Shown here in pieces: positions 9,022 through 58,512 of a DNA stretch of 64,000 nucleotides (the first letter of the stretch is position 1; the number at the start of each line of letters is the position of its first letter). The position numbers and the translations under genes were made by a program. Where the stretch lies: the NCBI GenBank assembly GCA_016705245.1, contig JADIYM010000003.1, positions 420,148 through 484,147 on the forward strand, written 5' to 3'. Under the pieces are notes generated by a model that saw nothing but the letters and a program-made list of their open reading frames with translations, did no database searches and was not told where the DNA came from. Origin of the DNA: Blastocatellia bacterium (GTDB taxonomy: Bacteria > Acidobacteriota > Blastocatellia > UBA7656 > JADIYM01).

Positions 9022-9666
9022 CTAGCGGCGCGACACCCTGGCCGCCGCGAGCGTCGCGTCAAAGACCTTCGGGTAGGTTCCGCAACGGCACAGGTTGCCG
9101 CTGACCGCGTCGCGCACGTCATCAAGCGACGGCGACGGGTTTCTGTCGAGCAGCGCCGCGCAACTCATCACCATTCCGGGAGTGCAATATCCACACTGCA
9201 TCGCGTCGTGCTCGATGAACGCTTCCTGGACCGGATGCAGTACGTCGCCCTTCGCGAGCCCTTCGATCGTCGTGACGGCACGGTCACCGACGTCGATTGC
9301 CAGCGTCATGCACGACACGACGAGAGTCTTGTCGAGCAAAACCGTGCACGCCGAGCACGAACCGCGATCGCAAACCACTTTGGTTCCGGTCAGTCCCAGG
9401 TCGTCGCGCAATGCCTCGGCCAGCGTAGTCCGCGGCTCGATGTCGAGCTTGCGGGCGGAGCCGTTCACGTTCAGCGTCACGGCGACACGTCCCGGGCCCA
9501 CCGCGGCAGGACCGGCGAGCGCCGTTGACGCTTCCGTCACCGCGTTCAGGCCAGTCTCGAGGATTGCGGCTCCAGCGGCTCCAAGTCCGGCGCCCTTGAG
9601 AAACCCGCGCCGCGAGACATTTCCACTCGTGACAGGCGAATCGGTCGGTACTGGATCTTCAGCCAT
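9022..9666 (-). CDS. (2Fe-2S)-binding small subunit of molybdenum hydroxylase with twin-arginine (Tat) signal peptide (PaoA-like)
   Basis: Real start at MAEDPV with SD GAAGGAGG upstream; Tat motif SRRGFLKGAGLGAAGAA; two [2Fe-2S] Cys clusters CDRGSCSACTV and CGYCTPG...CRCGTY. The ORF-table start 9825 lies inside an upstream palindrome. Confidence 0.85.
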   Translation of the reverse strand: MAEDPVPTDSPVTSGNVSRRGFLKGAGLGAAGAAILETGLNAVTEASTALAGPAAVGPGRVAVTLNVNGSARKLDIEPRTTLAEALRDDLGLTGTKVVCDRGSCSACTVLLDKTLVVSCMTLAIDVGDRAVTTIEGLAKGDVLHPVQEAFIEHDAMQCGYCTPGMVMSCAALLDRNPSPSLDDVRDAVSGNLCRCGTYPKVFDATLAAARVSRR

Positions 9667-9720
9667 CGTGCCTCCTTCGGGGATGTCGAGAGTACGGACG
9701 AGGGGCGAAATCGTTTCAGC

Positions 9721-9852
9721 CCGTGCAATGCGCGAAGCGCTTTGGAGTGCGGCGTGAATCGCCGCTTTGGATTGTAATTTCGGGTTCCCGGAGAGTGGAA
9801 TCCAAAGCGGCGATTCACGCCGCACTCCAAGGCGCTCCGCGCAGTGCCGACG
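9721..9852. promoter_or_regulatory. Large hairpin (37-bp perfect arms, 25-nt loop, imperfect outer extension) between the PP2C gene end and the Mo-hydroxylase operon start
   Basis: GCGCTTTGGAGTGCGGCGTGAATCGCCGCTTTGGATT ... AATCCAAAGCGGCGATTCACGCCGCACTCCAAGGCGC; sits ~70 nt upstream of the small-subunit start. Confidence 0.5.
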
Positions 9853-13624: not shown

Positions 13625-13678
13625 GTCGTGATCATGCGCCGGAGAGCCTTGGCTGCATAGCTCCCATTGCAGCCCTGC

Positions 13679-13772
13679 GACTCTGCGTCTTCACTTTGCG
13701 TCTCTGCGAGAACCTCTTCTCCCGTGCGTGAGGGGGGGTTCTCGCAGAGACGCAAAGTGAAGACGCAGAGTC
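13679..13772. repeat. Family-A palindromic repeat, extended form (~36-bp perfect arms), copy A2
   Basis: GACTCTGCGTCTTCACTTTGCGTCTCTGCGAGAAC ... GTTCTCGCAGAGACGCAAAGTGAAGACGCAGAGTC. Confidence 0.8.
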
Positions 13773-13831
13773 GCATGAAAACTGGGGGTGGAATGGCTAC
13801 TTGATACCTCTCGCCATACGCTCGCACCTTT

Positions 13832-17252: not shown

Positions 17253-17350
17253 CTTTGCGTCTTTGCGTCTTCCTTTGCGCCTTTGCGAGAACCTCTTCTA
17301 GCCGTCAAGAAGTTCTCGCAAAGGCGCAAAGGAAGTCGCAAAGACGCAAG
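17253..17350. repeat. Family-A palindromic repeat, long nested form, copy A3
   Basis: CTTTGCGTCTTTGCGTCTTCCTTTGCGCCTTTGCGAGAAC...GTTCTCGCAAAGGCGCAAAGGAAGTCGCAAAGACGCAAG. Confidence 0.8.
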
Positions 17351-17368: not shown

Positions 17369-19537
17369 TTACTTGCCGACGGCCATTGCGGCCGAGATTC
17401 GGGAGCGCCAGGCCGACTCGATATCAGAGACGGGAACATCGATCGCCGTCGCGCCCCGCACGTCGATCCTGAGGCGGTCACCGCCAACGATACCGATCTG
17501 ACGGCACACGACGCCGAGGCGCGAGCAGATCTCGGCGATCTTCGCGACGGCCCCAACCGGCGCCGACGCAACGACACGCGAGGGTGCCTCGCCGAACAGC
17601 AAAGTCATCGCGTCGAGGTCGACATCGACGTCGACGGTGGCGCCGACCGCCGCTCGCCGGTAACTCGAGAAACAGCACTCGGCCAGCGTTACGGCCAGGC
17701 CGCCGTCCGAGCAATCGTGCGCCGACACGATCCACTCTTCCGTGATGGCCGTTCGCACGGCTTCCTGGACTGCCTTCTCGCGATCGAGATTCAGTTCCGG
17801 CAAAGGACCCGTCAGCACACCGCGCACCGTTGCGAGGTATTCGCTGCCGCCGAGCACGGGCGTCTCGTCGCCGATGAGCAGGACCGCGTGGCCCTCCCGG
17901 GCGAACCACTGCGTCGTCACGTGCTTCGGATTGTCGATCAGTCCGACCATTCCGATGACCGGCGTCGGATATATCCCCCGTCCGTCCGTCTCGTTGTAGA
18001 AGCTGACGTTGCCTCCGGTCACCGGAGTTCCGAAGGCGACGCACGCCTCCGACATTCCGTCGATCGTCTCGCTGAACTGCCACATCACCTCCGGTCGCTC
18101 CGGCGAGGCGAAGTTCAAGCAGTTCGTCACCGCCAGCGGCCGGGCTCCCGTGACCGAAAGGTTTCGCGCCGCTTCAGCGACCGCATGCATGGCGCCGAGC
18201 CGCGGGTCGATCTCGCAGTATCGCGCGTTGCTGTCGAGCGTCATCGCAATCGCCTTGCGCGTCTCCTTGACCCGGAGCACCGCCGCGTCCGATCCCGGGA
18301 GTACGACAGTGTTCGTCCGCACCATGTGGTCGTACTGGTCGTAGACCCACTCCTTCGACGCAATGTTCGGCGACGCGAGCAGCGCCTTGAGCGCGCCCTC
18401 CGCATCGACGTCGACTGCGTTGTGCAGCACCTCGAGGACGACCTGACCCTCGGGTCTCGCCAGCGGTCGATGGTAGACCGGCGCTTCGTCTGTCAGAAAT
18501 ACGTTCGAGATCTCGGCGACGACCTCGCCGTGCTCGAGCACGCGCATCTTCCCGTCGTTGGTTACCTTGCCGACCACGACGGCGTCGAGTTCCCACTTGT
18601 GGAAGATCTCGATGACTTCCCTGGCGCGCCCGTGCGATGCAACGAGCAGCATCCGCTCCTGCGACTCGCTCAGCATGATCTCGTACGGCGTCATGCCGGT
18701 CTCGCGCTGAGGTACGAGGTCGAGCTCGATCTCGACGCCCGTGCCGCCCCGGAATCCCATCTCGCATGTCGAGCACGTGAGGCCGGCCGCGCCCATGTCC
18801 TGAATGCCGACGACCGCGCCGGACCGCATGGCCTCGAGGCACGCCTCGAGAAGCAGCTTCTCCAGAAACGGATCGCCGACCTGAACGGTCGGCCGCTTCT
18901 CGAACGCCTCGTCGTCGAACTCGGCCGACGCCATGGTCGCGCCGTGGATCCCGTCGCGTCCGGTCTTTGCGCCGACGTAGATCACCGGATTGCCGACGCC
19001 TTCGGCCTTGCCGAGAAAGATCTGGTCGCGCTTCATGATCCCGAGCGCGAACGCGTTCACGAGGGGGTTCTTGTCGTAGCGGTCCGCGAAGTGCACTTCG
19101 CCGCCGATCGTGGGGACGCCAAAGCAGTTTCCGTAGTGACCGATGCCTCGCACGACGCCCTCATGCCGCGATCGGCGCGCGCCCATCGTGAAGATGTCGC
19201 GCAGAATGCCGCCGACGCCGGTCGCCGCGCCCTGGAAGGGCTCGATGAAACTCGGGTGGTTGTGCGACTCGATCTTGAACGCGACCGTGTAGCCTTCGCC
19301 GATGTCGACGATGCCGGCGTTCTCACCCGGTCCCTGGACGACGCACTCACCCGTGGTCGGAAGCCGCTTCAGGTGCACGCGGGACGACTTGTAGGAGCAG
19401 TGCTCGCTCCACATGACCGAGAAGATCCCGAGCTCGACAATCGTCGGGGGCCGCTCTAGCAGCTCGACGATCCGGTTGTACTCCTCGGGCGTCAGCCCGT
19501 GTTCGGCAATGACCTCTGGCGTAAACGGCTGCGACAT
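17369..19537 (-). CDS. purL: phosphoribosylformylglycinamidine synthase subunit II
   Basis: Real start MSQPFTPEV at 19537 with SD AGGAGA. The 45 codons upstream in the ORF table translate repeat B1. Conserved PurL motifs ([25 protein letters not shown]...). Confidence 0.9.
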
Positions 19538-19630
19538 GGCGTCTCCTGTGGCGAAACTCGGCGTGAGTCGAACCGGGAACGTTAGCAGAGGATGCGCCCG
19601 GGTGGGAAAGTGGCCGGATTGGGGTGTCAA

Positions 19631-19757
19631 GAAGGCGTAGCCGTACAGAGAGCACAGAGTCACGGAGTGCACGGGCAGACAAACGGATCGTCTCTGTGTG
19701 CTTCGTGACTCTGTGCCCTCTGTCCGGCTACGCCTTCTTCCGGTCCCTGGCTACCGG
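19631..19757. repeat. Family-B palindromic repeat copy B1 (~31-bp arms CACAGAGTCACGGAG-type) plus a ~65-bp flank shared with copy B2
   Basis: GGCGTAGCCGTACAGAGAGCACAGAGTCACG ... CGTGACTCTGTGCCCTCTGTCCGGCTACGCC; flank CTTCTTCCGGTCCCTGGCTACCGG ~85% identical to 28518-28585. Confidence 0.8.
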
Positions 19758-19918
19758 ATCGGGCAGGTCAGGTCCAATTTTCGTGTGAGGGGATCTGGTC
19801 GAAGAATCCGGTAGCTCTCATTGAAGGGCAGAACGTGCCGGTGCTGCACTGCCTCCGAGGCCAGCTCGCAGCGGTCGCAACGTGCTCACCTGGAACCCAC
19901 GTCAATAAGGAGCAACCG

Positions 19919-20371
19919 ATGAATCGCAAGAGCATCCTCACCGTAATCGCAGCAGTCGTGATCCTCTCCGCCGGCTTTGCCGTCGGAGCCCAGGTTTCGC
20001 GCCCGTACCACAACGGCAGTGTCTGGGGGATCGGCCAGATTCGCGTCAAGCCGGGCATGGGCGAAGCCTACAAGACCTATCTCGCCACCGAGTGGAAGAC
20101 CAACCAGGAGGCCATGAAGAAGGAAGGCATCATCCTCTCGTACAAGGTCATTTCGACCGAGGCGCACGGCACGCAGGATTTCAACATGCTCCTGATGACC
20201 GAGTACAAGGACCTCGCGACATACGAGGCGAATCAGGACAAGGCCGACGCCCTCGCGCAACGGATCGTCGGCGACGACAAGAAGCAGGAGCAGGGGTACC
20301 GGGATCGATCCGAGATGCGCGAAGTGCTTGGAAATCGGCTGGGTCGCGAGATCGTCCTGGCGCCGAAGTAG
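19919..20371 (+). CDS. secreted hypothetical protein (150 aa) with signal peptide
   Basis: ATG 19919 with AAGGAG upstream; signal peptide MNRKSILTVIAAVVILSAGFAVGAQ. Confidence 0.55.
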   Translation: MNRKSILTVIAAVVILSAGFAVGAQVSRPYHNGSVWGIGQIRVKPGMGEAYKTYLATEWKTNQEAMKKEGIILSYKVISTEAHGTQDFNMLLMTEYKDLATYEANQDKADALAQRIVGDDKKQEQGYRDRSEMREVLGNRLGREIVLAPK

Positions 20372-20765
20372 GCAACGAACGGAGACCAGTGCGCGGACGG
20401 CCGCCGGGAGTCGAACCCGGAGCGCAAGCAACGGGCCAACTTCCCCGTCCGCGCATGTCCGTAAGACCAGACGCCGGACGATCAATCACGTCACGCGCTC
20501 GGAATCGCACCGTTTCCCGGCCGCAATGGCTATCCCCGGCCATTCCCACCGTCCCGTCCTTCCCGAACATCCCGACCATCGGCACATCCTCGCTCCACGA
20601 CCCCCCGGCAGGTGCCGGGGCCAGCCCTTCAGCGCGTCCAGATTCAGCCGTGTCGTCCGTGGTGTTTCGTCCGCCGCCGCAATCAACTCTTGATGTCTAC
20701 TCCCTGCCCCGTCAAACTGGAGACTCGCGAGGTCAAACGGTATAGCGATAGAGACTCTGGTCGGC

Positions 20766-21341
20766 ATGCCCAGGACAGGTGCACCTTCACAACACGATGT
20801 CACGATACTGCTCGCTCGCTGGAGCGGCGGCGACAAAGCTGCGCTCGACGAGCTCGTGCCGCTGGTGTACTCCGAGCTTCGACGTCTAGCGGCCTCGTAT
20901 CTGCGGCGCCGGTCGGGCCAGCGCCCGCTCGAGGCGACTTCGCTCGTGCACGAGGCGTACGTGCAACTCGCCGATCAGACCTCGATAACCTTCGAGAACC
21001 GGGCGCAGTTCTTCGGCCTCGCGGCAAAGCTGATGCGCGACATCCTCGTCGATCACGCGCGGCGGCGGCACGCGGCGAAACGTGGCGGCAACCAGTTGAT
21101 GTTGTCGCTAGGAGAGGCCGACCGCGTCGGAACGAAGCCTGACGTCGATCTGCTCCTCCTCGATCTTGCGCTGCAGCGACTCGCCGAGAGGGAGGCCGAC
21201 TACAGTCGCGTCATCGAGCTGCGCTTCTTCGGCGGCCTCACCATCGAAGAGACCGCGGTAGCGATGAAGCTCCCGCACGCAACCGTCGAGCGGTACTGGA
21301 ACTTTGCCAGGGCCTGGCTTCGCCGCGAGCTCGAGGCATAG
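20766..21341 (+). CDS. ECF-type RNA polymerase sigma factor, TIGR02999-like (kinase-associated subgroup)
   Basis: DVTILLARWSGGDKAALDELVPLVYSELRRLAASYL...TSLVHEAYVQL and C-terminal region-4 HTH LTIEETAVAMKLPHATVERYW; ends TAG. Confidence 0.8.
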   Translation: MPRTGAPSQHDVTILLARWSGGDKAALDELVPLVYSELRRLAASYLRRRSGQRPLEATSLVHEAYVQLADQTSITFENRAQFFGLAAKLMRDILVDHARRRHAAKRGGNQLMLSLGEADRVGTKPDVDLLLLDLALQRLAEREADYSRVIELRFFGGLTIEETAVAMKLPHATVERYWNFARAWLRRELEA

Positions 21342-21347
21342 AAACGC

Positions 21348-23181
21348 ATGATGTCTCCCTCCGACATGCGTCGTCTCGAGGAGCTGTTTCATCAAGCCGC
21401 CCAGCTCGACGGCGAAGAGAGGGCGGCGTTCGTCTCGCATGTAAAGACATCGGAACCCGAGCTCGGTCTGGAGCTGCAGGCGCTGCTCGAAGCGGACGGC
21501 CGCGAAGGAACGTTCCTGGGTGTGCCGGCCATCGAAGCGGCTCTCGAGGTAATCGAGGAAGCCGCGTCGGAGGTTCACTTTGGGTCGCACGCTCGGCCGT
21601 TACACGGTCGTCTCGCCGATCGGAAAGGGAGGCATGGGCGAGGTCTTTCTCGCCGAGGACTCGCAGTTGGGTCGCAAGGTTGCGCTCAAGCTGCTGCCGG
21701 GTCGTTTCACGGACAGCGAGGATCGTCTGCGCAGGTTCATGCAGGAGGCCAAGGCGGCCTCGGCGCTCAACCATCCGAACATCATCACGATTCACGAGAT
21801 TGGCGACGCTGACGGCACGCACTTCATTGCGACCGAGTTCATCGAGGGCCACACGCTGCGCAGCCATCTCGCCCACAGGAAACTCGCCCTCGCCGAAGCG
21901 GTCGATATCGCGATTCAGGTGACGAGCGCGATCGAGGCGGCGCACAAGGCCGGTATCGCTCACCGGGACATCAAGCCCGAGAACATCATGATAAGGCGCG
22001 ACGGCTACGCGAAGGTCCTGGATTTCGGTCTCGCGAAACTCACCGAGGCGCAACCACCCGGCGAGGCGAACGTGGATACGCACCACAGCACCGCGATCAT
22101 GAGCGGCACGAAGCCCGGGATGATCTTCGGAACGCCGAAGTACATGTCGCCCGAGCAGGCGCGCGGCCTGGTAACCGATGCTAGGACCGACATCTTCAGT
22201 CTCGGCGTCGTGATCTATGAGATGGTCACGGGTAACGCTCCGTTCTCGGGCGAAACGAGCCTGGACGTGGCGGCTGCGATCATCTCGAGCGAACCCGCTC
22301 CGCTGTCCGAGGCAGTGCCCGGAACGCCTGCGGAGCTCGAGCGCATCGTCGCCAAGGCGCTGCGCAAGGACCGCCGCGATCGCTACCAGTCGACGCACGG
22401 CCTGCTCGTGGATCTGAAGAAACTCAAGGAGGAGCTCGCCTTCGGCGAGCGGCTCGAAAGGGACGCGTCGATCCGGATTCCGGCCGGACAACCCCAAGGC
22501 AGCGAAAGGAAGAACCGTACAGGATTACTGTTGGCGCTAGTCGGCCTCCTCATCGCGCTGCCGATCGCCGTCGCCGTAGTGTGGCCATACCTGCGACCAC
22601 CGGCGCCTCCGGCCACGGAGAGCGTTGCGGCGCCAGAGCGCTTCATCAGCTACTGGATCGAGGTTCAGAAGTACCGGGACGGCAAGCCATATCTGGAGCC
22701 GATCCGTCTGCGCGACGACATCAACTTCGAAAAGGACTATCGGCTGCGGCTGAACATTGGCAGCACGCAGAGCGGCTACCTGTACCTGCTGAACGAGGGC
22801 CCGGTGCTCGACGGAGGCGTGCCCTCGTACGTCGTGATGTATCCGACGACCGCCAGCCAGCCTGCGCTGCTCGCCGCCAACCAGCAGGTTCACATACCTG
22901 AGCCGGGCTGGTTTCAGTTCGACGGACAGGAGGGCGTCGAGAAGATCTGGCTGGTCTGGGCCGATCGCGCGGTCGACGAGATCGAAGCCGTGAAGCAGTT
23001 CTCCAACGCACGAGACAAGGGACTCGTCGGCGACGCAGGTCTGCGCGCTGGAGTTGACGCCTTTCTGAAGTCCCACTCCCCTGCCGCGACTTCGGTCGAG
23101 CGGAGCGAGGCCACTGCCGAAGCAACCCTTCGCGGCCGCGGTGATATCCTCGTCCACGTCATCAGGCTCTCGCACCACTGA
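21348..23181 (+). CDS. Ser/Thr protein kinase with sigma-associated N-terminal extension, TM segment and extracellular DUF4384-like domain; apparent frameshift near 21585
   Basis: N-terminal MMSPSDMRRLEELFHQAAQLDGEERAAFVSHV... is typical of kinases paired with TIGR02999 sigma. Kinase motifs IGKGGMGEVFLAED, VALK, HRDIKPEN, DFGLAK, GTPKYMSPE lie in the +1 frame starting ~21580; the frame change falls at TTT 21581-21583. TM LLLALVGLLIALPIAVAVVWPYL; GYLYLLNEGP (DUF4384-like). Confidence 0.8.
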
Positions 23182-23250
23182 CCCTACGTCCGCCCGGACA
23201 CTCCGTGAGGGGGCTCACATCGAATCTGCGGTTCTTTCGTTGGAGTTTGT

Positions 23251-26200
23251 ATGGCAAGCAACACACGCACACTGCTTTCCCTCGTGCTCGTTCTGTGCTG
23301 CGCCCCAGACGTAATCGGCCAGTCGAGCCCGGATGCCCAATCGTTCGGTCCCGAGAAACCCGTCGAGCGCGCTATATCCGGAGCCGAATCGCATACGTAC
23401 CGAGTCGCGCTGACGGCTGGCCAGTTCGTTCTGTTCCGTCTCGACCAGAGGTCCCTCGACTGTGGCCTCGTCCTGTCGGCGCCGGACGGCAAGCAACTCG
23501 CCGAGATGGACTTCACCGGCACCGGCGAACAGGAATCGCTCGCAATCGAGGCAGTCACCACCGGCGATCATCGGCTGACTGTGCAGAGCAATCCGGCGGC
23601 ATCGTGGCTCGGCTCATACCGGCTCGAAGCGACGATCCATACGCCGGCATCGGCATCGGATCGCAAGCAGCTGGTTGCGCAAGCCTGATGTTCGAGAGCG
23701 TGGCGCTCCGAAAGTCCGGCCCGGATGCGGCGACGCAGTCGATCGGGAAGCTCGAACAGGCGCTGGCGATCTGGCGCGAGTTGCAGGAGCCGTCGTGGAT
23801 CGCAGTCACGTTGGGCGCCATCGGAGACGTACTCTACGGCACCGGTCCGGACAAGGCGCTCGAGTACTACGAGCAGGCATTGGCATCTGCACGCGAGTCC
23901 AGATTGCGGGCACGCGAAGCCGCCGCGCTGAGTGCGCTGAGTGGGTTCTGCTACGGCACGCGCGAGTATGAAAAGTCGATCGAATACAGCGAACAGGCCC
24001 TGGTAATCCAGCGCGAACTGAATGATCGGGCTGGCGAGGGCATCACGCTCAACGACCTGGGCATAACGTACAACACGATGCGTCGCGCCGACCGGGCCAT
24101 CCCTTATTACGAGCAGGCGCTGGCGATCAAGCGAGAGCTGAAGGACCGATCCGGAGAAGGAGGCACGCTCGCCGATGTCGGTTGGTCATACCTTGGCGCG
24201 AGCCGGTCGCAGGAGGCGATCGCGAGTTTCGAACAGGCGCTTGCGATCTTCCGCGAACTGAATGACCGGAGCCGCCAGGAAAGCGCCTTGAGCGGCCTTG
24301 GTGTCACAAGTCAGTCGCTGAGCCGGTTCGAGAAGGCCATTGAGTACTTCGAGCAGGCCCTAGTGGTCCATCGCGAACTGAAATCTCGGAGCAAAGAGGC
24401 CGTCACGCTCGCCAGTATTGCGAATGCGTATTCCGCGCTGCGCCGCTACGACAAGTATTTCGAATATGCCGAGCAGGCGCTCGCCATCGCTCGCGAGACC
24501 AAGACCCGTTACGCGGAAGGTCGAACGCTCAGCGACATGGGCGGGGTCTATCTCACGATTGGCCGCTTCGACAAGGCAACCGAGCACCTTGAGCAGGCAC
24601 TGGTCATCAATCGCGAACAGAAGGACGTGATGGTGGAAGGCTTCACGCTCCGCTCGCTCGGAACGGTCTTCAACAAACAAGGCCAGCCGGCGAAGGCCCT
24701 CGAGCAATACGAGCAGGCCCTGGCCATCTTCCGTGCCGCGAAATCCCGGCCGCACGAGGGCGGCACGCTGAACATGCTGGCGCAGGTCAACCGGTCGCAA
24801 CGCCAGTTCGAGAAGGCGATCGAGAACTCGGAACAGTCGCTGGCAATTGCCCGTGAGGTGAAGAATCCAGAGTACGAGTTGAATGCCCTCACGACTCTGG
24901 CCTGGACCGAGAATGACCGTGGGAATCTTGCGGCGGCGCGCTCGCGCATCGAGGAAGGGTTGAACGTCGCCGAGTCGCTTCGGTCCGATCTCGTGAGCCC
25001 GGCTTCGCGCACGTCGCTACTGGCTTCCGTGCAGACTTCCTACCAGCTCTACACGGACATCCTGATGCGCCAGCACAAGGCGGATCCGTCGAAGCGACTC
25101 GACGAACTGGCGGTCGACGTCAGTGAGCGGCAGCGCGCCCGCAGCCTCCTCGATCTTCTCGTGGAGGCCGGCGCCGATTTCCGCAAGGGAGTGGATCCGG
25201 TGCTGCTCGAACGCGAGCAGAGCCTGGCCAGACAACTCAGCGAGAAGGCGCGTACGCCAACTGACACGCCCGAGAAAGCTGCCAGAGTGAAGCTCGAAAT
25301 CGGCCAGCTCGAGACCGAGCTCGAACGGGCACAGGTCGCGATCCGCAAGAACAACCCGCACTATGCGTCGCTCGTTCAGCCACAGCCGCTCAAACTGAGG
25401 GAAATCCAGGCGCTGCTCGATCCGGACACGCTGCTGCTCGAGTACGCGCTTGGGACGGACCGCAGCTACCTTTGGGCGATCACCAGGGATTCTCTCAAGA
25501 GCTACGAGTTGCCAAAGGGAGCGGATATCGAGAAGAGTGCGCTCGCCGTCTACGGATTGCTGAAGACGCGCAATGCCGATATCTCGACAGCTGCCAGCGC
25601 GCTCGCCCAGATGGTGCTCGCGCCGGTCGCGGCTGACCTCGGGACCAGGCGCGTGGTCGTGGTGGCCGACGGCGCGCTGCAATACATTCCGTTTGCGGTA
25701 TTGCCGGCTCCGGCCGTTGCGGATGGGCGTCCGCTCATCGTGGATCACGAGGTCGTGAGCCTTCCGTCGGCATCGGCGCTGGCAGTCCAGCGTGCGGAGC
25801 TTGCGGGCCGGCAGCCGGCTCCGAAGCTTCTGGCGGTCATCGCCGATCCTGTGTTCGATGCCACGGATACACGGGTGAAGGCGGTTGCGCGAAAGCCTGC
25901 GGAGAAGGACGACGTGCAGGTGATCGCGGCGAACGACGCGCGAACGATCGAGCACCTCGCCGAGAACTCGAAGGCCGGCGCCGTGACGAAGCGTGTCGTG
26001 ATCCCGCGGCTTCCCTTCACCCGGCAGGAAGCCACGCGGCTGATCGCGCTTGCGCCGCCGAATTCGAGTCTCGGTGCGGTCGATTTCAATGCGAGTCGCG
26101 AGGCGGTGCTCGGCGGTGATCTTTCCCAGTATCGGTACGTGCACTTTGCGACGCACGGACTGCTGGACAGCGAGCGACCGGGTCTGTCGTCGCTCGTGCT

Positions 26201-26579
26201 GTCCATGGTGGATGCGGATGGCAACCCCAAGGACGGGTTCCTTCGCGCGAACGACATCTACAGCCTGAAGCTGCCTGCGGACCTCGTGGTGCTGAGTGCG
26301 TGCCAGACGGGGCTCGGCAAGGACGTGAAGGGTGAGGGGCTCATCGGATTGACGCGCGGCTTCATGTATGCGGGCGCGGCCCGGGTTGTCGTCAGCCTAT
26401 GGAACGTGAACGACAGAGCGACGGCCGAATTGATGACGAGGTTCTACGAAAGGATGCTGAAGCGGGGCGAGCGGCCAGCGGCTGCGTTACGCGCGGCGCA
26501 GGTGGAGATGTGGAAGCAGAAGCAGTGGCGATCGCCCTATTACTGGGGCGCGTTCGTGCTGCAAGGAGAATGGCGTTAG
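23251..26579 (+). CDS. secreted TPR-repeat CHAT-domain (caspase-like) protein with N-terminal signal peptide and PPC-like domain; apparent frameshift near 23670-23688
   Basis: Signal peptide MASNTRTLLSLVLVLCCAP. More than 10 TPR units of the EQALAI(F/W)RELxDRxGE type. C-terminal CHAT dyad HFATHG and LVVLSACQTG. N-terminal domain is in the +1 frame, ending in TGA at 23686-23688. Confidence 0.8.
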
Positions 26580-26654
26580 CGTGAGTGGATCCGGCGGCGG
26601 GTTGCGGTTTCCTTTATGAAAGAGAAGGCCATCTCGGAAAGGGAGGATGGTGTC

Positions 26655-27572
26655 GTGAGGAAATGGATCTGTCTGTTTGCCGTCGGTCTCTTCATCCACC
26701 TGTCGGTGGCTCAGGCTGTCGCGCAGGATCCCGCGGGGCCAGATGATGGAACGCGGCACCTGTGGAACACTGCGTACATCGCCCCCGCACCCGGCACGAC
26801 CGCGAGAAGGCGCCCCGCGAGGCGAATCTACCGGATTGCTACGCCGAAGGTGCCAGTGGCTGGCGTGACTGCGGACACGGTGGTCGGCGTGACGCTATGG
26901 AGGCTGCGACCGGCGCGCCGGTCCGACGCCGGCGAGCGGATCATCACGCACGAAGGCCCGGATGCTGTCGATTGGGTGCCGGAGCGCGTGTCGTCGACGA
27001 CGCGGCTTGCGCAAGGCGATCGCCTGCGGATCAGCATCGAGGCGGCCCGGACCGGCTACCTCTACGTTGTCAATCGCGAGGAATATGCCAACGGCACACG
27101 CGGCGAGCCGATCCTGATCTTTCCGACGACGCGCACACGCGGAGGCGACAACCAGGTCCGCGTGGGCCGCGTGATCGAGATTCCTGCGCAGGAAGACTCG
27201 CCTCCGTTCTTCACATTGCAAAAGAGCCAGCCCGAGCACGTGGCGGAGAGTGTGACGATCATTGTGTCACCGACGCCGATCGAGGGGTTGAACATTACGG
27301 ACAAGCAGCTGCGGTTGACGGAGGAGCAGGTCGCGGCGTGGGACAAGCAGTGGGGCGGTCAGGCTGGCCGTCTGGAGATGCAGGGTGGTGCCGGCAAGCC
27401 CTGGACGAGCGCGGAGAAGGACGCTGGCTCGGACGGTACGCGATCGCTGACGAAGGCTGATCCGGTCCCGCAGACGGTGTTATACCGCCCCGGCGTCGCG
27501 AGCGACCGCGGCGCGTTGTACCAAGTGAAACTGAACTACGCCCGCCGTTCGCCACGGAACAGGGCGCGGTAG
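26655..27572 (+). CDS. secreted DUF4384-like protein
   Basis: GTG start with GGGAGGA upstream; signal peptide RKWICLFAVGLFIHLSVAQAVAQ; RTGYLYVVNREEY motif resembling the kinase ectodomain GYLYLLNEGP; ends TAG. Confidence 0.65.
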   Translation: MRKWICLFAVGLFIHLSVAQAVAQDPAGPDDGTRHLWNTAYIAPAPGTTARRRPARRIYRIATPKVPVAGVTADTVVGVTLWRLRPARRSDAGERIITHEGPDAVDWVPERVSSTTRLAQGDRLRISIEAARTGYLYVVNREEYANGTRGEPILIFPTTRTRGGDNQVRVGRVIEIPAQEDSPPFFTLQKSQPEHVAESVTIIVSPTPIEGLNITDKQLRLTEEQVAAWDKQWGGQAGRLEMQGGAGKPWTSAEKDAGSDGTRSLTKADPVPQTVLYRPGVASDRGALYQVKLNYARRSPRNRAR

Positions 27573-27610
27573 CGCCCGGCCGCGCACACACGCGACTGTA
27601 GAGCGGCAGA

Positions 27611-27985
27611 TTCCGCGACCGCGGACCGGTCAGTTCCGCGACCGCGGACCGGTCAATTCCGCGACCGCGGACCGGTCAACTCCGCGACCGCGGACCGGTC
27701 AACTCCGCGACCGCGGACCGGTCAACTCCGCGACCGCGGACCGGTCAACTCCGCGACCGCGGACCGGTCAACTCCGCGACCGCGGACCGGTCAACTCCGC
27801 GACCGCGGACCGGTCGATTCCGCGACCGCGGACCGGTCGATTCCGCGACTGCGGACCGGTCAACCTGGGCGACCGCGGAGCGGTCGATGAAGAAGCCTGG
27901 GTCGCGCGCGGGCGAGTGCAGCGAGCCCTCGCGTGACCCGCGGAACCGCCGGCCGCCACGCACCGACCGCGGAGCGGTCGCATCT
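27611..27985 (+). repeat. Tandem array of a 23-bp REP-like unit (about 12 good copies, then degenerate copies)
   Basis: Period 23 (starts at 27611, 27634, 27657, ...); unit contains the palindromes CCGCGG and GACCGGTC; no unique spacers, so not CRISPR. Confidence 0.85.
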
Positions 27986-28262
27986 TCAGTCCCAAAGATA
28001 ACGTGCGTCGCAGGCGACACCGTGCTCGTCGAGTAGTGAGACGAACTCCTCGTCGTAGGACACGCGCCGGTGGTGCTCCTTCTGTGCCGCGATGTAACGG
28101 CGCACGGCGGGCAATTCCGATCTTCCCACGGAGAACCCTCCGTATCCGTCCTGCCAGCTGAAGTCCCTCGAGACCGCCTCGTGGCGTTTCAGCCACGTCG
28201 TTCGCTCGATGCTTCGTCGGGAACACGATGTGCAGGTAGACCTCGATCAGTGTCCGTGCCAT
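27986..28262 (-). pseudogene. REP-associated tyrosine transposase (RAYT, IS200/IS605 TnpA-like) remnant, internally deleted and frameshifted
   Basis: N-terminus MARTLIEVYLHIVFPTKHR in one frame. C-terminus RDFSWQDGYGGFSVGRSELPAVRRYIAAQKEHHRRVSYDEEFVSLLDEHGVACDARYLWD in another. Only ~91 codons total versus ~150-170 for intact RAYTs. Confidence 0.7.
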
Positions 28263-28299
28263 GGGCCTTGCTCTCTTGGCCCATGATCGAAATCCGCAC

Positions 28300-28510
28300 G
28301 GCCTGAGTTGCTTCCCACTCGCAACAAGGCGACCGCCCGGCGGTCGCGCGTGGCTGGCGGCATGCGGGTCGCGCGCAGGCTCGCTGCACTCGCCCCCGCG
28401 CGACCCACGGCTATTTCATCGACCGCTCCGCGGTCGCGGAATTAACGCTCCACGATCGTGGAATTAACGCTCCGCGGTCGCGAATTACCGCTCCGCGGTC
28501 GCGGAATTCA
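28300..28510 (-). repeat. Right inverted terminal segment of the RAYT element plus 3-4 inverted copies of the 23-bp REP unit
   Basis: Reverse complement of 28300-28425 aligns with 27870-27985 (GGTCGATGAA...GGGTCGCGCG...GCGAGTGCAGCGAGCC...). Units GACCGCTCCGCGGTCGCGGAATT at 28421, 28466 and 28487. Confidence 0.7.
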
Positions 28511-28517
28511 CGCTCCG

Positions 28518-28580
28518 CTGTGTGCTTTGTGACTCCGTGCTCTCTGTGCGGCTACGCCTTCGTGCGGTCCCTAGCTACCG
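28518..28580. repeat. Family-B repeat copy B2 (half-palindrome plus shared flank, direct-repeat partner of B1 flank)
   Basis: TGTGTGCTTTGTGACTCCGTGCTCTCTGTGCGGCTACGCCTTCGTGCGGTCCCTAGCTACCGG vs 19690-19757. Confidence 0.7.
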
Positions 28581-28582
28581 GG

Positions 28583-29365
28583 TCAGCCGCACGCAGCCAT
28601 TCTCACGTCGATCAGGAATCGGTCGATCTCGGCGATATTGGGCGCCGCGTCCGGCAACGACGATCGCTCGTATGCACGCAGCATCTCGGCTTCCAGCATC
28701 GAGATCTTCTGGGCGTGTCGCTCGACTTCGTCACGCCCCATGGTCGTGCCATCGCCGGATCGCTTTCGCTCAATGAGGTCGGCAATCCCATCGACGTTGC
28801 GATCCGCGGCGAGCCGGGTCACGTTGCACTCCACCTCTCCAGTCGACATCAAGTGGATTCCCGTCAGAAGCACGCGATAGACATAGAGCAGCGTCTTTAC
28901 CCGCTTCGGCTCCTCGGACGTGAACGCCTTCCATCGTCCGCGGACGAAGCCACGATAGTGATGATAAAGCGTCCGGTTCACGAATCCGTGAGCGAGCGAG
29001 CGGAGTTGCTCGAACTCGGGCCGGGCGACGACGACGTGCGGTGACGTGATCTGTTCGAGGACGTAGCCGTTTTTTGCCACGAGCAACCGCAGGTACTTGC
29101 CGATGTCGTGCGAAAGCAGGTCGATCCGCATGCCGTCGACCGTATCGTCACGGTCGTGCGACTCGCGCGGCGGACGAAGCGAGATTACGGACTCGAGAGG
29201 AAGAACGTGGGCCCCCCGAATGTCCACGTCGCTCTCCGACGACGGAAATCCATAGAGGTGCGCGCCGCTGACTACGGCAAACAATGGAAGTGCTGGGCCG
29301 AGATCCGAGACGAGAGACGCCAGCCACGGAGCGTCTAGTGCGGCCGCATTCCTGCTCATTGACAA
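28583..29365 (-). CDS. nucleotidyltransferase-fold protein (GS...DxD NTase motif; DUF4037/KNTase-like)
   Basis: VVSGAHLYGFPSSESDVDIRGAHV matches the pol-beta-type NTase signature hG[GS]x9-13DxD; 260 aa; flanked on both sides by family-B repeats. Confidence 0.55.
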   Translation of the reverse strand: MSMSRNAAALDAPWLASLVSDLGPALPLFAVVSGAHLYGFPSSESDVDIRGAHVLPLESVISLRPPRESHDRDDTVDGMRIDLLSHDIGKYLRLLVAKNGYVLEQITSPHVVVARPEFEQLRSLAHGFVNRTLYHHYRGFVRGRWKAFTSEEPKRVKTLLYVYRVLLTGIHLMSTGEVECNVTRLAADRNVDGIADLIERKRSGDGTTMGRDEVERHAQKISMLEAEMLRAYERSSLPDAAPNIAEIDRFLIDVRMAACG

Positions 29366-29505
29366 CTCCAGCCCATGGCGTCGACCACGCCGTTCGGCGC
29401 CAGGGCACGGAAAATTCGGTTTACGTTCTGGAGAGCGGCATGAGCATACGCCTGGGGGAGTGGCCGCTCAAGCTCGCAGGATTGCGAGACGACTCGCCTC
29501 CGCGG

Positions 29506-29585
29506 CTCCGTGACTCCGTGTCTCTGTGTGCGCAGCTCTTCAGAGCGCTTCGCACACAGAGACACGGAGTCACGGAGTCACGGAG
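29506..29585. repeat. Family-B palindromic repeat copy B3
   Basis: CTCCGTGACTCCGTGTCTCTGTGTGCG ... CGCACACAGAGACACGGAGTCACGGAGTCACGGAG. Confidence 0.8.
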
Positions 29586-29593
29586 AGGACCCC

Positions 29594-30301
29594 TTATGAC
29601 GCCTTCGCCAGCTCCGCCAGGGCCGCCGCAAGCGACGTGAAGATACCTCGACCGTCCGCGGAGCCCAGTGCATCCTCGCTCGCTCTCTCGGGGTGCGGCA
29701 TCATGCCGAGCACGTTGCCGCGGTCGTTGATGATTCCGGCGATGTTGTTACGCGAGCCGTTCGGGTTTGAGTCCGGCGTTGGCTCGCCCTTCGCATCGAC
29801 GTACCGGAACAGCACCTGTCCCTCGCCCTCGAGCCTCTCGAGCGTCTCGTCGTCGCAAAAGTAGTTCCCGTCGCCGTGCGCGATCGGAATCGACAGCACC
29901 TGGCCCTTCTCGTAGTCGCGCGTGAACATCGTGTCGGACCGTTCGACACGCAGGTTCACATGCCGGCATGCAAATGCGAGGCTTGCATTGCGCAGCAGCG
30001 CGCCCGGCAGCAAACCCGACTCGCAGAGGATCTGAAATCCGTTGCAGATCCCGAGCACGATTCCGCCGTGATCCGCGAACTTCACGACCGAGCGCATTAT
30101 CGGTGAAAGACTCGCGATAGCCCCCGTGCGCAGGTAGTCGCCGTACGAGAACCCGCCCGGCAGGACGATGCAGTCGTACCCGTCGAGATCCGAATCGCGG
30201 TGCCAGATGAAGTCGACCGGCTGGCCAATCACCTTGCTGATGACGTGGTAGGCATCGTGGTCGCAGTTCGACCCCGGAAAGACGACGACTCCGAACTTCA
30301 T
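29594..30301 (-). CDS. purQ: phosphoribosylformylglycinamidine synthase subunit I (glutaminase)
   Basis: [14 protein letters not shown]...GICNGFQIL...HPER motifs of PurQ/class-I GATase. Confidence 0.9.
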
Positions 30302-30543
30302 TCGTGAATCTCCACTCGATAGTCTTCGATGACGGGATTCGACAGGATCTCGCGCGCTATGCGATCGAGCTCGGCGAGCGCCGCCGCCGGCGCGAGTGAC
30401 TCGGCCACTTCGATCTCGAAGTACTTGCCCTGCCGCACCGCGGCGATCGCGTTCGAACCGTTCGTCTCGATCGCGTGATGGATGGCCTTGCCCTGCGGGT
30501 CCAGCACCCCGCGCTTCAACGTCACATAGACTTCGGCTTTCAT
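30298..30543 (-). CDS. purS: phosphoribosylformylglycinamidine synthase subunit PurS
   Basis: 81 aa, [21 protein letters not shown]...; ATGA overlap with purQ. Confidence 0.85.
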
Positions 30544-30558
30544 AGACCTCTCGTTGGC

Positions 30559-31881
30559 TCAGGCCGTCGCCGGACCAAGCACTCGCTCAAAGATTCGATC
30601 CACGTTTCGGAGTTGCGTCCCCAGGTCGAAGACGCGTTCGAGTTCCCCGACCGACATGTGTGCCCCGATTGCCGGGTCCTCGAGCACAAGCTCTCGGAAC
30701 TCACGGTCCTCGTCCCACACTCGCATCGCCTGCGGCTGCACCAGGGCGTAGGCATCCTCGCGGCTCACACCCTTTCGCGTGAGCTCGAGCAGAACCTGTC
30801 CGCTGAAGATCACGCCCCGAAGCGCGTTCAGGTTCTCGCGCATGCGCTCCGGGAACACCACGAGTCCATCGACGAGCCACGTCGTCTTTGCCAGCAGATA
30901 GTCGGTCAGGATGCACGAGTCCGGCAGGATGACGCGCTCCACCGACGAATGCGAAATGTCGCGCTCGTGCCAGAGCGCGTTGTTCTCGATCGCCGGCACG
31001 ACGTTGCCGCGGACGACGCGGGCGAGTCCGCAGATCTGTTCGCAGACGACCGGGTTGCGCTTGTGCGGCATTGCAGACGAGCCCTTCTGTCCCTTGCCAA
31101 ACGGCTCCTGCGCCTCGCGCACCTCGGTCCGCTGCAGGTGCCGCACCTCGAGCGCGATCTTCTCGAGCGTCGAACAGAGCACGGCGAGCGCGGAAACGAA
31201 CTCGGCATACCGATCGCGCTGCACGACCTGCGTCGAAATCGGCGCGAAGCCCAGGCCGAGCCGCTGGCAGACACGCTCCTCCACCTCGGGGTCGAGATGG
31301 GCGAAAGTGCCGACCGCGCCGCTGATCTTCCCGACGCTGACAGCCGCAACCGCGCGGCCGAGGCGCTCGATAGCCCGCTCGACCTCCGCGTAATAGAGAA
31401 GCAGCACGAGGCCGAACGTCGTCGGCTCGGCGTGCACGCCGTGCGTGCGCCCGATCATTGCGGTGTCCTTGTGTTCCACCGCCCGGCGCCGCAGCGCATC
31501 GGCAAGTTCCCGGCACCGTGCGAGCAGGCGCTCGCCCGATGCCTTGAGCAGGAGTCCGTTTGCCGTGTCGACGACGTCCGACGAAGTCAGGCCGTAGTGC
31601 ACGAACCGCGCCGACTCGCCGACGCGCTCGGCGACGGCCGTCGTGAAGGCGATGACGTCGTGTCGCGTCACGCGCTCGATCTCGTTCACGCGAGCGACGA
31701 AGGCCTCGTCGACCGGTGACGCGGACGTCCGTTCGCGAATCGTAGCCGCGTCGGACGCCGGGATCGTCCCCATTTCGGCGTGCACGTCGCAGACCGCGAC
31801 TTCGACGTCGAGCCACGCCTGAAAGCGCGCGACGTCGGACCAGATGGCGCCCATTTCGGGCAGTGTGTAGCGTTCGATCAT
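30559..31881 (-). CDS. purB: adenylosuccinate lyase
   Basis: 440 aa; fumarate-lyase signature [10 protein letters not shown]; N-terminal [16 protein letters not shown] typical PurB. Confidence 0.9.
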
Positions 31882-34077: not shown

Positions 34078-34172
34078 GACTTCGTCTCGCGTCGACTCGG
34101 TCCTTTGCGAGAAACTCTTCGAGCCGTCGAAGAAGTTCTCGCAAAGGCGCAGAGGAAGACGCAAAGACGCAA
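34078..34172. repeat. Family-A palindromic repeat, degraded copy A4
   Basis: TTTGCGAGAAACTCTTCGA...TCGAAGAAGTTCTCGCAAAGGCGCAGAGGAAGACGCAAAGACGCAAG; outer left arm diverged. Confidence 0.7.
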
Positions 34173-34245
34173 GGTAAGCAGTGAGCCTGCACCATGTTCA
34201 GGATGCGAGTTGGACCGTCTTGACTCGGGCCGGTATTCTCCGACG

Positions 34246-36756: not shown

Positions 36757-37060
36757 CCGATCACTTCAGTGCGGCCAACGACGAGTCCGCGGTTTCAGCC
36801 ACCGTCCGTGGGACGCTCGCTACCGCTCGCGGCTCGACAAACGGGGACGGGAACGGCGGGCGGCCCCCGTTTTTTGAGCCGCGAGCGGTAGCGAGCGTCC
36901 CACGGACGGTCGACCGGTTCCGATCACTTCTGTCCTTCCGCAACGACGAGTCTGCGAGTTCACGCACCGTCCGTGGGACGCTCGCTACCGCTCGCGGCTC
37001 GAGAAACGGGGACGGGGGCGGGGACGGGGGCGGACGGAGCGTCCTGCCCCCCGCCAGTGG
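36757..37060. repeat. Complex repeat cluster (family D): two direct ~100-bp copies and an inverted partial copy forming a ~35-bp-stem hairpin with a nested GC hairpin
   Basis: ACCGTCCGTGGGACGCTCGCTACCGCTCGCGGCTCGA(C/G)AAACGGGGACGGG at 36800 and 36966; reverse complement at 36867-36912; CCGATCACTTC...CAACGACGAGTC also duplicated (36757/36917). Confidence 0.75.
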
Positions 37061-38176: not shown

Positions 38177-39267
38177 ATGACCGAGCCGCTCATCACGATC
38201 GACGACCTAAAGGTCCACTTCGACCTCTCGCACCGCGGCCTGATTGCCCGGGCGACAGGACGGGCAAAGGAGAAAATCGTGAAGGCCGTCGACGGCATCT
38301 CGCTCGAGATCCGCCGCGGCGAAACGCTCGGACTCGTCGGCGAGTCCGGCTGCGGCAAGTCGACCACTGGCCGCGCCATCCTCCAGCTGGTCCGCCCGAC
38401 GTCGGGACGGGTCATGTTCGCCGGCAGGAACCTTTCGGAAGTGAAGGACGGCGACATGAAGCCGTACCGGCGGCGCCTCCAGATGATCTTCCAGAATCCG
38501 TACGCATCGCTGAATCCGCGTATGACGGTCGGATCGATCATTGCCGAGCCCATCCGCAACTTCCGGATCAACCTCGGGGAGTCACAATCGGCGGCGCGCA
38601 CACAGGAGCTGATGCGCGTCGTCGGGCTCAACCCGCGATACGTCAAGCGTTATCCGCACGAGTTCTCAGGCGGACAGCGCCAGCGCATCGGCATCGCGCG
38701 CGCGCTCGCGGCCGACCCCGAGTTCATCGTCGCCGACGAGCCGATCTCGGCGCTCGACGTCTCTATTCAGGCGCAGATCATGAACCTGATGGAGGATCTG
38801 CAGGAGCAGTTCGGGCTGACGTACCTGTTCATTTCGCACGACCTGCGGGCCGTTCGACACGTCAGCGACCGCGTCGCCGTGATGTACCTCGGCAAGATCG
38901 CGGAGCTCGCGATCTCGAAGGACATTTACATCCGCCAGATTCACCCGTACACCGGGCGCTCATATCGGCGGTTCCGTCCCCGATCCGAAGGTAGAAGCAG
39001 CGGAAACGCATCGTGCTCCAGGGTGACGTGCCGTCGCCGATCAACCCGCCTCCGGGATGCCACTTCCACACGAGGTGTCCGTACGCGATCGCTGCGTGCG
39101 CGAGGATCGTTCCCGCGCTTCGCGAGATCCAGCCGGAGCACTTCGCGTCGTGCATCCGCGTATCGCCCGAATATCCCGACATCGATGCCGTCGCGAAGAT
39201 GCCGGGTGAGCGGCACTTTGGTGTCGAAGGAGTGGGAGCTTCGCACACAGAGACACGGGGACACTGA
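38177..39267 (+). CDS. oligopeptide/dipeptide ABC transporter ATP-binding protein (DppF/OppF-like), disrupted: frame change near 38953 and in-frame TAG at 38992-38994
   Basis: Intact through Walker [31 protein letters not shown]. Conserved continuation ALISAVPSP...[31 protein letters not shown] lies in the +1 frame, interrupted by a TAG. The last ~15 codons translate repeat B4. Confidence 0.7.
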
Positions 39268-39326
39268 GACACTGAGTCTGCTCATCTCAGTGACTCCGTG
39301 TCACCGAGCCTCTGTGTGCGAAGCTC
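39236..39326. repeat. Family-B palindromic repeat copy B4
   Basis: GAGCTTCGCACACAGAGACACGGGGACACTGAGACACTGAG...CTCAGTGACTCCGTGTCACCGAGCCTCTGTGTGCGAAGCTC. Confidence 0.8.
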
Positions 39327-50850: not shown

Positions 50851-50996
50851 CTTCGTGCGGTGCAGGAGAGTGGACAGAATTCACGGGATTTGAAGAGGAT
50901 TGTCGGGACGGCTTGATTGAGGTTGTGGCGCGCTCGGATTCTCAACAAGCATTCCCTCGAATCCTCGGAAAATCCTGTCAATCCTGTCCACTCTCT

Positions 50997-51045
50997 CGCT
51001 TCGCACGCAGAGACACGTAGGCACAGAGTGGTGACGCAGCGAGGC
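50997..51045. repeat. Family-B repeat, partial/degenerate copy B5
   Basis: CGCTTCGCACGCAGAGACACGTAGGCACAGAGTGGTGACGCAG. Confidence 0.5.
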
Positions 51046-58414: not shown

Positions 58415-58512
58415 GAGAGCTTCGCACACAGGGACGCGGAGACATGGAGGCACGGAGAATCCTGGACTCCGTGCCTCCGTGTCTCAGTGTCTCTGTGTGC
58501 GAAGCTCTCCCT
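58415..58512. repeat. Family-B palindromic repeat copy B6
   Basis: GAGCTTCGCACACAGGGACGCGGAGACATGGAGGCACGGAG...CTCCGTGCCTCCGTGTCTCAGTGTCTCTGTGTGCGAAGCTC. Confidence 0.8.

Follow-up and report, generated by a model that had tools for sequence, protein, structure and literature searches.

Probable old relocation of a resident signalling cassette into the purine-biosynthesis operon of a Blastocatellia bacterium

Introduction

Sigma factors of the ECF43 type, a type of extracytoplasmic function (ECF) sigma factor, are activated by phosphorylation and a DAED-motif rule has been described for them (PMC8999054). RlaP enzymes add one or two nucleotides to damaged RNA 3' ends (PMC12776372). Genes for an ECF sigma factor and for RlaP are both found in a stretch of 64,000 nucleotides of a soil/wastewater acidobacterium of the class Blastocatellia (contig JADIYM010000003.1 of assembly GCA_016705245.1), in which purB, purS and purQ of the purine-biosynthesis operon are parted from purL by rlaP, a five-gene cassette and a REPtron, an element with arrays of repetitive extragenic palindromic (REP) sequences and the remnant of a REP-associated tyrosine transposase (RAYT) gene. 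The whole stretch is called the window. Coordinates are given in window numbering unless a comparison locus from a relative (L followed by a number) is named.

The cassette was probably resident in the family and relocated into the pur operon long ago. On this reading the long direct repeats at its ends (B1 and B2) are secondary and the insert is not a recent foreign island.

The insert between rlaP and purL

A reading made from the sequence alone (the sequence-only reading) had described a recently inserted island of ~10 kb, including a nucleotidyltransferase (NTase) gene, between purQ and purL. The separation of purB-purS-purQ from purL by ~10 kb was confirmed, and the listed genes and palindromes were present. 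The gap from purQ (ends at 29594) to purL (starts at 19537) was ~10 kb and that from rlaP, the NTase gene, to purL was ~9 kb. The purL open reading frame (ORF) spans 17369-19672, with its real start at 19537.

The matches listed in a GTDB scan with PurQ had at most 69% identity and were used for background synteny only. Closer relatives were found via protein clusters. Identical PurQ was present in wastewater metagenomes and in the Blastocatellia metagenome-assembled genomes GCA_016704725.1 and GCA_963852865.1, to which the window was 99.3% and 98.5% identical across the locus. Empty sites, at which rlaP is followed by purL, were found in L091 (PurQ 92% identical), L095 (84%) and L094 (83%), with spacers of 157, 30 and 3 nt, respectively. 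The gene order was purQ-rlaP-purL in L091 and L095 and purQ-rlaP-rlaP-purL in L094. PurL of the window had 90% amino acid identity to PurL of L091, where purL comes straight after rlaP. Since rlaP lies between purQ and purL in three lineages without the insert, rlaP is judged a native operon gene outside the insert, which lies between rlaP and purL. The best explanation of these gene orders is an ancestral operon of the order purB-purS-purQ-rlaP-purL. The empty sites also bear out a genuine operon-splitting insertion, as originally proposed. The inclusion of the NTase gene did not survive, because all relatives examined have kept rlaP between purQ and purL. The true insert is ~8-9 kb and reaches from the purL leader to the rlaP stop codon. 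Adjacency of purQ and purL elsewhere, suggested as a check, was found in many other phyla, but in the bacterium's own family rlaP stands between them.

The same position was occupied in L097/L098 (PurQ 96% identical), L109 (99%) and L120/L121 (93% for sec150, the cassette gene nearest purL), as well as in strains of the same species with 100% identical PurQ (L001-L003, L008 and L009). In L120, homology to the window restarts at 19776. The flanks of the carrier lineages were just 85-90% identical to the window at the DNA level, which argues that the insertion predates the splits between them.

Next to purL, the native leader is kept from the ancestral rlaP-purL spacer, and we infer that purL, formerly co-transcribed with rlaP, is now expressed from the 382-nt divergent spacer between sec150 and purL. 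A scan of 19300-20900 for sigma-70 promoters and intrinsic terminators, which is uninformative for Acidobacteria, gave nothing. No match at the gathering score was obtained for the purL leader and the palindromes in Rfam, only sub-threshold matches of miRNA precursors to the hairpins, and a riboswitch or known RNA in these elements was rejected on this search.

A seat of rlaP between purQ and purL was held across the Blastocatellia family (window 28583-29365, L091 10998-11780, L094 10726-12416, L095 9258-10034), with a duplication of rlaP in L094. This stable seat of an RNA-repair-type RlaP in a purine-biosynthesis operon may be of specialist interest. In more distant relatives of the Pyrinomonadaceae type, the purQ-purL gap holds co-oriented genes for DsbA-like, VKOR and AhpC-TSA thioredoxin-fold proteins (L015 10746-14000, L016 10696-12663, L020 10683-12623). 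Judging from these gene orders, the junction of purQ and purL is generally permissive in the class.

The same cassette at a glycosyltransferase locus

The same five genes were found in the same order in a 92% relative (L110, L111, L113, L115 and L114), antisense between two genes for family 4 glycosyltransferases (GT4). L114 comes from GCA_021463145.1, which also yields L092 with a 92% identical PurQ. Neighbouring genes at this glycosyltransferase (GT) locus are GT2, dnaJ, ahpC, carD, gltX, udg, coaBC and gmk. Homology between the window and the cassettes of L110, L111, L113 and L115 covered exactly 19780-27575, with 78-80% nucleotide identity; the flanks were 74-81% identical. The GT-locus cassette sits just past a stop codon and antisense, as at the pur site, and no flanking direct repeats were found around the cassette of L110. 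The GT locus of the window species (L116) lies on the same 4.06-Mb contig as the pur locus, ~290 kb away, and has the two GT4 genes 62 nt apart with no cassette. The GT locus of L117/L118 is likewise uninterrupted. Among the sec150 clusters, the 4.06-Mb contig is given as the longest contig only for the 100% identical cluster P0121, which points to one copy of the cassette. The cassette proteins were 77-90% identical in amino acid sequence between the two lineages, compared with 78-94% for core proteins (PurB 91, PurQ 92, PurL 90, RlaP 79, GT4 78/91, CoaBC 83 and CarD 94%).

An orthologous, equally diverged, single-copy cassette in a sister lineage argues that the block is not foreign DNA, and its presence in different operon-internal spacers of sister lineages argues for relocation. 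Because both target sites are empty in other lineages, the cassette has probably made two separate and independent landings. At the pur site, insertion of a block of ~8 kb, antisense and straight behind the rlaP stop codon in the short rlaP-purL spacer, would predate the divergence of at least three species-level lineages. The block would probably also have brought the neighbouring REP/RAYT element.

Table 1. Features of the pur locus and the insert in the window
Feature	Position	Strand	Basis
purL, FGAM synthase II	17369-19537	-	Pfam AIRS/AIRS_C/FGAR-AT linker
Native purL leader kept from ancestral rlaP-purL spacer	19538-19612	-	aligns with L091 empty-site spacer and L120
B1, complete palindrome and 21-nt tail, purL-side direct-repeat copy	19629-19760	.	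arms 19629-19672 / 19696-19739, 23-nt loop
Cassette, core of the insert, five genes	19776-27575	+	homology to GT-locus copies and to L120
sec150, 150-aa protein, N-terminal hydrophobic signal-like segment, function not assigned	19919-20371	+	sequence features
ECF sigma factor	20766-21341	+	PF07638 / TIGR02999
Ser/Thr kinase, one transmembrane segment, C-terminal DUF4384 domain	21348-23181	+	Pfam Pkinase; intact 610-aa form in L002
TPR-CHAT (caspase-like) protein, signal peptide	23251-26579 (ORF from 23205)	+	Pfam
DUF4384 protein, N-terminal hydrophobic segment	26616-27572	+	Pfam
REPtron	27607-28521	.	REP arrays, inverted repeat and decayed RAYT
Decayed RAYT remnant	27988-28262	-	frameshifted, internally deleted
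B2, half palindrome and tail abutting rlaP stop codon, rlaP-side direct-repeat copy	28518-28584	.	truncated at loop, where REPtron REPs start
rlaP, Pol-beta-type nucleotidyltransferase	28583-29365	-	Pfam PF10127
B3, palindrome in purQ-rlaP spacer	29498-29585	.	arms 29498-29539 / 29544-29585
purQ	29594-30301	-	Pfam GATase_5
purS	30298-30543	-	identified via annotated identical loci
purB	30559-31881	-	identified via annotated identical loci

Palindromes and the direct repeat

The palindromes at the locus had been assigned to one family, B, with B3 and B1 bracketing the island. Folding showed that B1 (44-nt arms, 89% complementary; -89 kcal/mol, z -10.8) and B3 (-82.6 kcal/mol, z -11.5) are real palindromes, and B1 does lie at the purL-side end of the insert. 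However, B3 lies in the purQ-rlaP spacer and marks no boundary, B3 and B1 are different sub-families with only a short motif in common, and the half palindrome B2 failed to fold (z 0.56). The direct repeats reported around ~8.8 kb at the ends of the insert were upheld by alignment: 19694-19760 and 28518-28584 were 88% identical over 67 nt at a spacing of 8824 nt (blastn E ~1e-15), far above chance.

A complete rlaP-side palindrome of ~130 nt, made up of tail, arm, loop and arm, extends from the rlaP stop codon in L097/L098, L109 and the same-species strains L003/8/9. B1 of the window was 93% identical to the rlaP-side copy of L097/L098 over 124-127 nt, loop included, versus 88% to its own B2. 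Complete rlaP-side copies that match B1 through the loop indicate that B1 and B2 are true paralogues, and the closer match of B1 to the L097 copy than to its own B2 suggests later copying or exchange. In L120/L121, an unrelated family-C palindrome (-80.5 kcal/mol) takes exactly the slot of B1 (window 19592-19775), with no trace of B, and in L103 a family-C palindrome follows straight after the rlaP stop codon. At the empty rlaP-purL site of L091, no B copy and no hairpin was found. A degenerate palindrome scar in this spacer was considered and rejected, as the spacer folds no better than shuffled sequences (z -0.88). The purQ-rlaP spacer is similarly variable, with B3 in the window, a different palindrome family in L091 and just 8 nt in L095.

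About ten long imperfect palindromes of several families, with arms of 41-65 nt, occupy intergenic spacers of the 64-kb window. Those outside the locus lie at 9725-9847, 13676-13775, 17255-17349, 34102-34183, 36801-37011, 39236-39326, 50851-51010 and 58415-58509. The palindromes at 17255, 34102 and 13676 form one family and those at 29498, 39236 and 58415 another, and the palindrome at 9725 is of the same family as that filling the purQ-rlaP spacer of L091.

Taken together, the empty site without B, the family-C palindrome in the B1 slot, the unflanked GT-locus copy, the similarity of B1 to the L097 copy and the many spacer palindromes favour B1 and B2 as later colonisers, or local copies, of new junction DNA rather than products of the insertion. 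The same observations (no B at the empty site, family C in the B1 slot, no repeats at the GT locus) speak against insertion with repeat duplication, as put forward in the sequence-only reading.

An alternative that makes the repeats part of the event is Campbell-type, repeat-mediated integration. A circular, B-bearing intermediate would have recombined with a resident B 3' of rlaP, leaving the cassette between two direct B copies of ~130 nt, and B would later have given way to other palindromes in some lineages. Tail, both arms and loop are indeed 89-93% identical between B1 and the complete rlaP-side copies, and palindromes lie exactly at both native/cassette junctions in every carrier. B1 and B2 are also the sole members of their sub-family in the 64-kb window. 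A metagenome scan with the B arm returned two loci only, and the one other locus (L108) has a different loop and different flanks, but the species is rare in that collection, which is too sparse for a family census and makes the scan poor support for this model. Integration of this type is nevertheless considered unlikely, in view of the missing B at the empty site of L091 and at the purL junction of L120/L121, the missing direct repeats at the GT locus, and the closer match of B1 to the B2 of another lineage than to its own partner. Two further proposals on the repeats were rejected: a direct repeat that reaches into the final codons of rlaP (by eye, ~5-6 of 10 positions agree, which is not significant), and an origin of the B tail as a leftover of DNA downstream of the L110 cassette (a match of 13-14 nt only, in opposite orientation).

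The REPtron

At the rlaP-side end of the insert, the REPtron contains a tandem array of twelve 23-nt REPs (27607-27885) and, in inverted orientation, about four more (28424-28518). A scan with the REP motif, REP GACCGCGGAnCGGTC, gave 12-13 matches on the plus strand (27612-27979) and three on the minus strand (28421-28505), 16 matches versus 0.38 expected. A 44-nt inverted repeat (27898-27941 / 28364-28407) encloses the RAYT remnant. The remnant scored 22.8 bits against Y1_Tnp, below the 23-bit cut-off and over profile positions 83-121 of 121 only, and a 'HIVFPTKHR'-type N-terminal motif was recognised by eye.

The element varied between strains and lineages. A full REPtron with B2 truncated at the loop was present in the window, L001, L002 and L005; only the REP array was present in L003/8/9. 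At the GT locus, L110 has homologous REPtron inverted repeats with the RAYT almost wholly deleted, and the REPtron is inverted relative to the cassette when compared with the window. In the DNA fetched, this REP family formed clusters next to the cassette only (window 27612-28505, the arrays of L003/8/9, and L110 17942-19089). Outside 27612-28505 the 64-kb window had no copies, and clusters were absent from L116, L091 and the remaining loci fetched from these genomes. The linkage of REPtron and cassette at two loci suggests joint travel, that is, that the REPtron travelled with the cassette. The best explanation of the variants is that the REPtron region was later reshaped by strain-level deletions and expansions.

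Downstream of the L110 cassette, a stretch of ~1.9 kb consists of repeats only, with no called gene; at 18795-19195 and 19302-19508 it has three tandem 133-nt repeats, each with one REP, and further palindromes. In L005, a wastewater contig with identical purQ and rlaP, the DUF4384 gene is missing behind the REPtron; in its place, at 9190-9751, come a different B-family arm and an ORF with no Pfam match and an extremely Cys-rich C-terminal tail (CCCDCCDC...CNCD). This is an alternative arrangement or a chimeric assembly. L005 also suggested a landing of the REPtron inside B2 with both arms kept, but its distal arm has no B2 loop and continues into unrelated sequence, so that this arm is either another B-family copy or an assembly chimera.

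The linkage raises the possibility that cassette and REPtron are a cargo-carrying block moved by the RAYT, landing just 3' of stop codons inside operons. Such a block would fit the finding that, at two loci in two lineages, the cassette is bordered on its DUF4384 side by the same REPs, inverted repeats and RAYT remnants, with that REP family nowhere else in the DNA covered. Both insertions also lie a few nt from the stop codon of the upstream gene and antisense to the host operon, and the target sites, being empty in other lineages, imply at least two landings. Movement by the RAYT is nevertheless considered quite unlikely. The cassette lacks a REP hairpin on its sec150 side, the RAYT has decayed in both lineages, the REPtron is flipped relative to the cassette between the two loci, and L097/L098 and L109 carry the cassette without REPs. 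Plain physical linkage in one recombinational relocation accounts for the co-location equally well. To our knowledge, RAYTs have not been found to carry cargo. They are held to be domesticated, single-copy and non-mobile (PMC3333891, PMC8266576). The wider proposal of an integrase-less mobile block of cassette and REPtron, with at least two antisense landings after stop codons by way of either the RAYT or the junction palindromes, is just as doubtful. If true, it would be the first RAYT/REP system with a cargo of ~8 kb.

Origin of the insert

A recent horizontal acquisition, in which a ~10-kb island including the NTase gene would be bounded by B3 and B1 with the 67-nt repeats as target duplication, is highly improbable. 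The gap and the repeats are real. In a region of ~65% GC, the island is ~2% lower in GC than its flanks, and its codon and tetranucleotide usage deviates slightly. Third-position GC (GC3) of the island genes was, however, 0.75-0.82, within the core range of 0.70-0.86, so that the composition check resulted in a core-like GC3 but pooled codon and tetranucleotide distances modestly above those of any core block. rlaP stands between purQ and purL in all relatives examined, with or without the insert, and the spacer that holds B3 is unrelated to the insert. The insert is common to lineages with 85-89% flank identity, and the sister lineage has an orthologous chromosomal cassette with core-like divergence. 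Among the five cassette genes, no integrase, transposase or conjugation genes were found with Pfam; the sole candidate is the decayed RAYT remnant in the REPtron. We know of no precedent for a target duplication of ~130 nt, which also counts against this explanation. The recent and foreign character of the insertion was thus not sustained, as the insert is shared by diverged lineages, has core-like GC3 and has a sister-lineage orthologue with core-like divergence. Family-wide conservation and core-like composition of the island genes, named in the sequence-only reading itself as arguing against recent insertion, are largely what was found.

It is scarcely credible that the whole group originally had the insert at the pur locus, lost it in L091, L094 and L095 and separately gained a copy at the GT locus. 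In favour of this, the purQ-purL junction is permissive and is often occupied by other genes in distant Blastocatellia, and the rlaP-purL spacer of L091 (157 nt) exceeds those of L094 and L095 in length. Three clean deletions (leaving 3-, 30- and 157-nt spacers and no palindrome scar) as well as a transfer to the GT locus would, however, be needed, and the gap genes of the distant relatives are unrelated, co-oriented thiol-redox genes and not the cassette.

Several observations weigh against an old relocation within the family. The cassettes of L097/L098 and L109 have no REPtron and no REP sequence, and co-travel of the REPtron would require its clean secondary loss there. Palindromes of the same family lie at both junctions in each carrier, with none at the empty site; at a spacer occupancy of ~25%, this exceeds chance association, and a mechanistic role for the palindromes is possible as a minor rival to secondary colonisation. 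The empty pur site of L091 and the GT cassette of L114 come from two assemblies with identical PurQ and not from one contig. The pooled codon usage distance of the island was 0.53 and its tetranucleotide distance 0.16, compared with 0.27-0.44 and 0.11-0.14 for core blocks, which would allow for an origin or expression class somewhat unlike that of the core. Divergence was also mosaic: versus L097/L098 the island was 90% identical at the nucleotide level and the pur flank 85%, and versus L109 the island was 92.7% and the flank 97% identical. Together with L103, the divergence among these loci indicates frequent recombination between lineages and points to inter-lineage homologous recombination at the locus that may have blurred its vertical history. 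In L103, rlaP is nearer to L097 (93%) and the pur genes are nearer to the window (89%). Old relocation of a resident cassette is still the probable course of events, and the locus is best described as ordinary genome plasticity with one odd linkage, that of cassette and REPtron at two loci.

Genes of the cassette

The kinase ORF begins 7 nt past the ECF sigma factor gene, and no anti-sigma factor gene is adjacent. In the sigma factor, the sequence 'LEATSLVHEAY' has 'EATS' where the acidic DAED motif of region 2.2 normally sits, a position placed by eye. By analogy, a sigma factor with an adjacent kinase and no anti-sigma factor gene matches kinase-activated ECF43-type systems. The kinase would phosphorylate the DAED-less sigma factor, which would then drive expression of the secreted proteins of the cassette, and the DUF4384 domain of the kinase would be the external sensor. 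The secreted TPR-CHAT protease, the DUF4384 protein and the 150-aa protein are the probable output of the system.

The sec150 protein had no match in Pfam or NCBIfam. Its family is well conserved (60-80% identity), with 788 database proteins in Blastocatellia, Pyrinomonadaceae and Chloracidobacterium, and a stand-alone copy, unlinked to a kinase/sigma factor module, is present in the distant relative L119 (10001-10513).

Compared with L001 and L002, the window has a private 1-nt insertion at 21579 in the kinase gene and a private 1-nt deletion at 23684 in the TPR-CHAT gene. L001 has a 256-nt deletion in the kinase gene (window 22523-22778) and a frameshifted ECF gene. Private indels were also found in flanking core genes of the window (38952-38993, 39890 and 39949), which suggests that those of the cassette may be assembly errors. 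Pseudogenisation of the cassette in the window strain was rejected, as both 1-nt indels are private to one assembly with similar ones in core genes. The indels of the window and L001 could reflect independent strain-level decay of the cassette or errors of assembly.

Comparison with known systems

The insert resembles genomic islets in its presence or absence at a fixed site between related lineages, its sharp homology breakpoints and its junction repeats. It differs from them in lacking an integrase, a tRNA target and a clear compositional signature, and its cargo has a chromosomal orthologue in a sister lineage, which points to movement within the group and not to import. The comparison is corrective: what appears to be an island in a housekeeping operon is probably a resident signalling cassette that was relocated long ago, and the NTase gene appears to be the operon's own.

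The long palindromes are similar to REP/BIME-, ERIC- and MITE-like elements, being imperfect, 90-135 nt in length, stable (-80 to -89 kcal/mol), intergenic, often located right after stop codons and grouped in lineage-specific families. Their arms of 41-65 nt are far above those of classical REPs. No transposase and no signature of terminal inverted repeats or target duplication was found for them in the window, and their mobility is suggested by presence and absence alone. The locus offers a natural series of strain variants for the colonisation of new intergenic DNA by palindromes and REP arrays.

The regulatory genes resemble pairs of ECF43 sigma factors and Hanks-type kinases, EcfP/PknT of Vibrio parahaemolyticus and EcfK/PknS of Xanthomonas citri (PMC8999054, PMC13147305). 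In both cases a sigma factor gene is followed by a transmembrane Ser/Thr kinase gene with no anti-sigma factor, and Thr/Ser takes the place of the acidic DAED motif, apparently also in the window, where the motif was placed by eye. The sigma factor of the window differs in being of the PF07638/TIGR02999 type, and its kinase has an extracytoplasmic DUF4384 domain. The presumed regulon of the window system is the TPR-CHAT protease and the DUF4384 protein, versus type VI secretion system or polymyxin-resistance genes in the described pairs.

Finally, REPtrons are described by Ton-Hoang et al. 2012 (PMC3333891) and Corneloup et al. 2021 (PMC8266576) as a Y1-transposase-like gene between inverted arrays of ~22-23-nt REPs, with larger inverted repeats, and the element of the window has a like organisation around its decayed RAYT remnant. 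Compared with these descriptions, the RAYT of the window is an internally deleted pseudogene and its REPs are confined to the REPtron rather than dispersed in the fetched DNA. The window element is also polymorphic between strains and is tied to the same cargo at two chromosomal sites. Should this linkage be due to mobility, it would be relevant to whether RAYT/REP systems can still move DNA.

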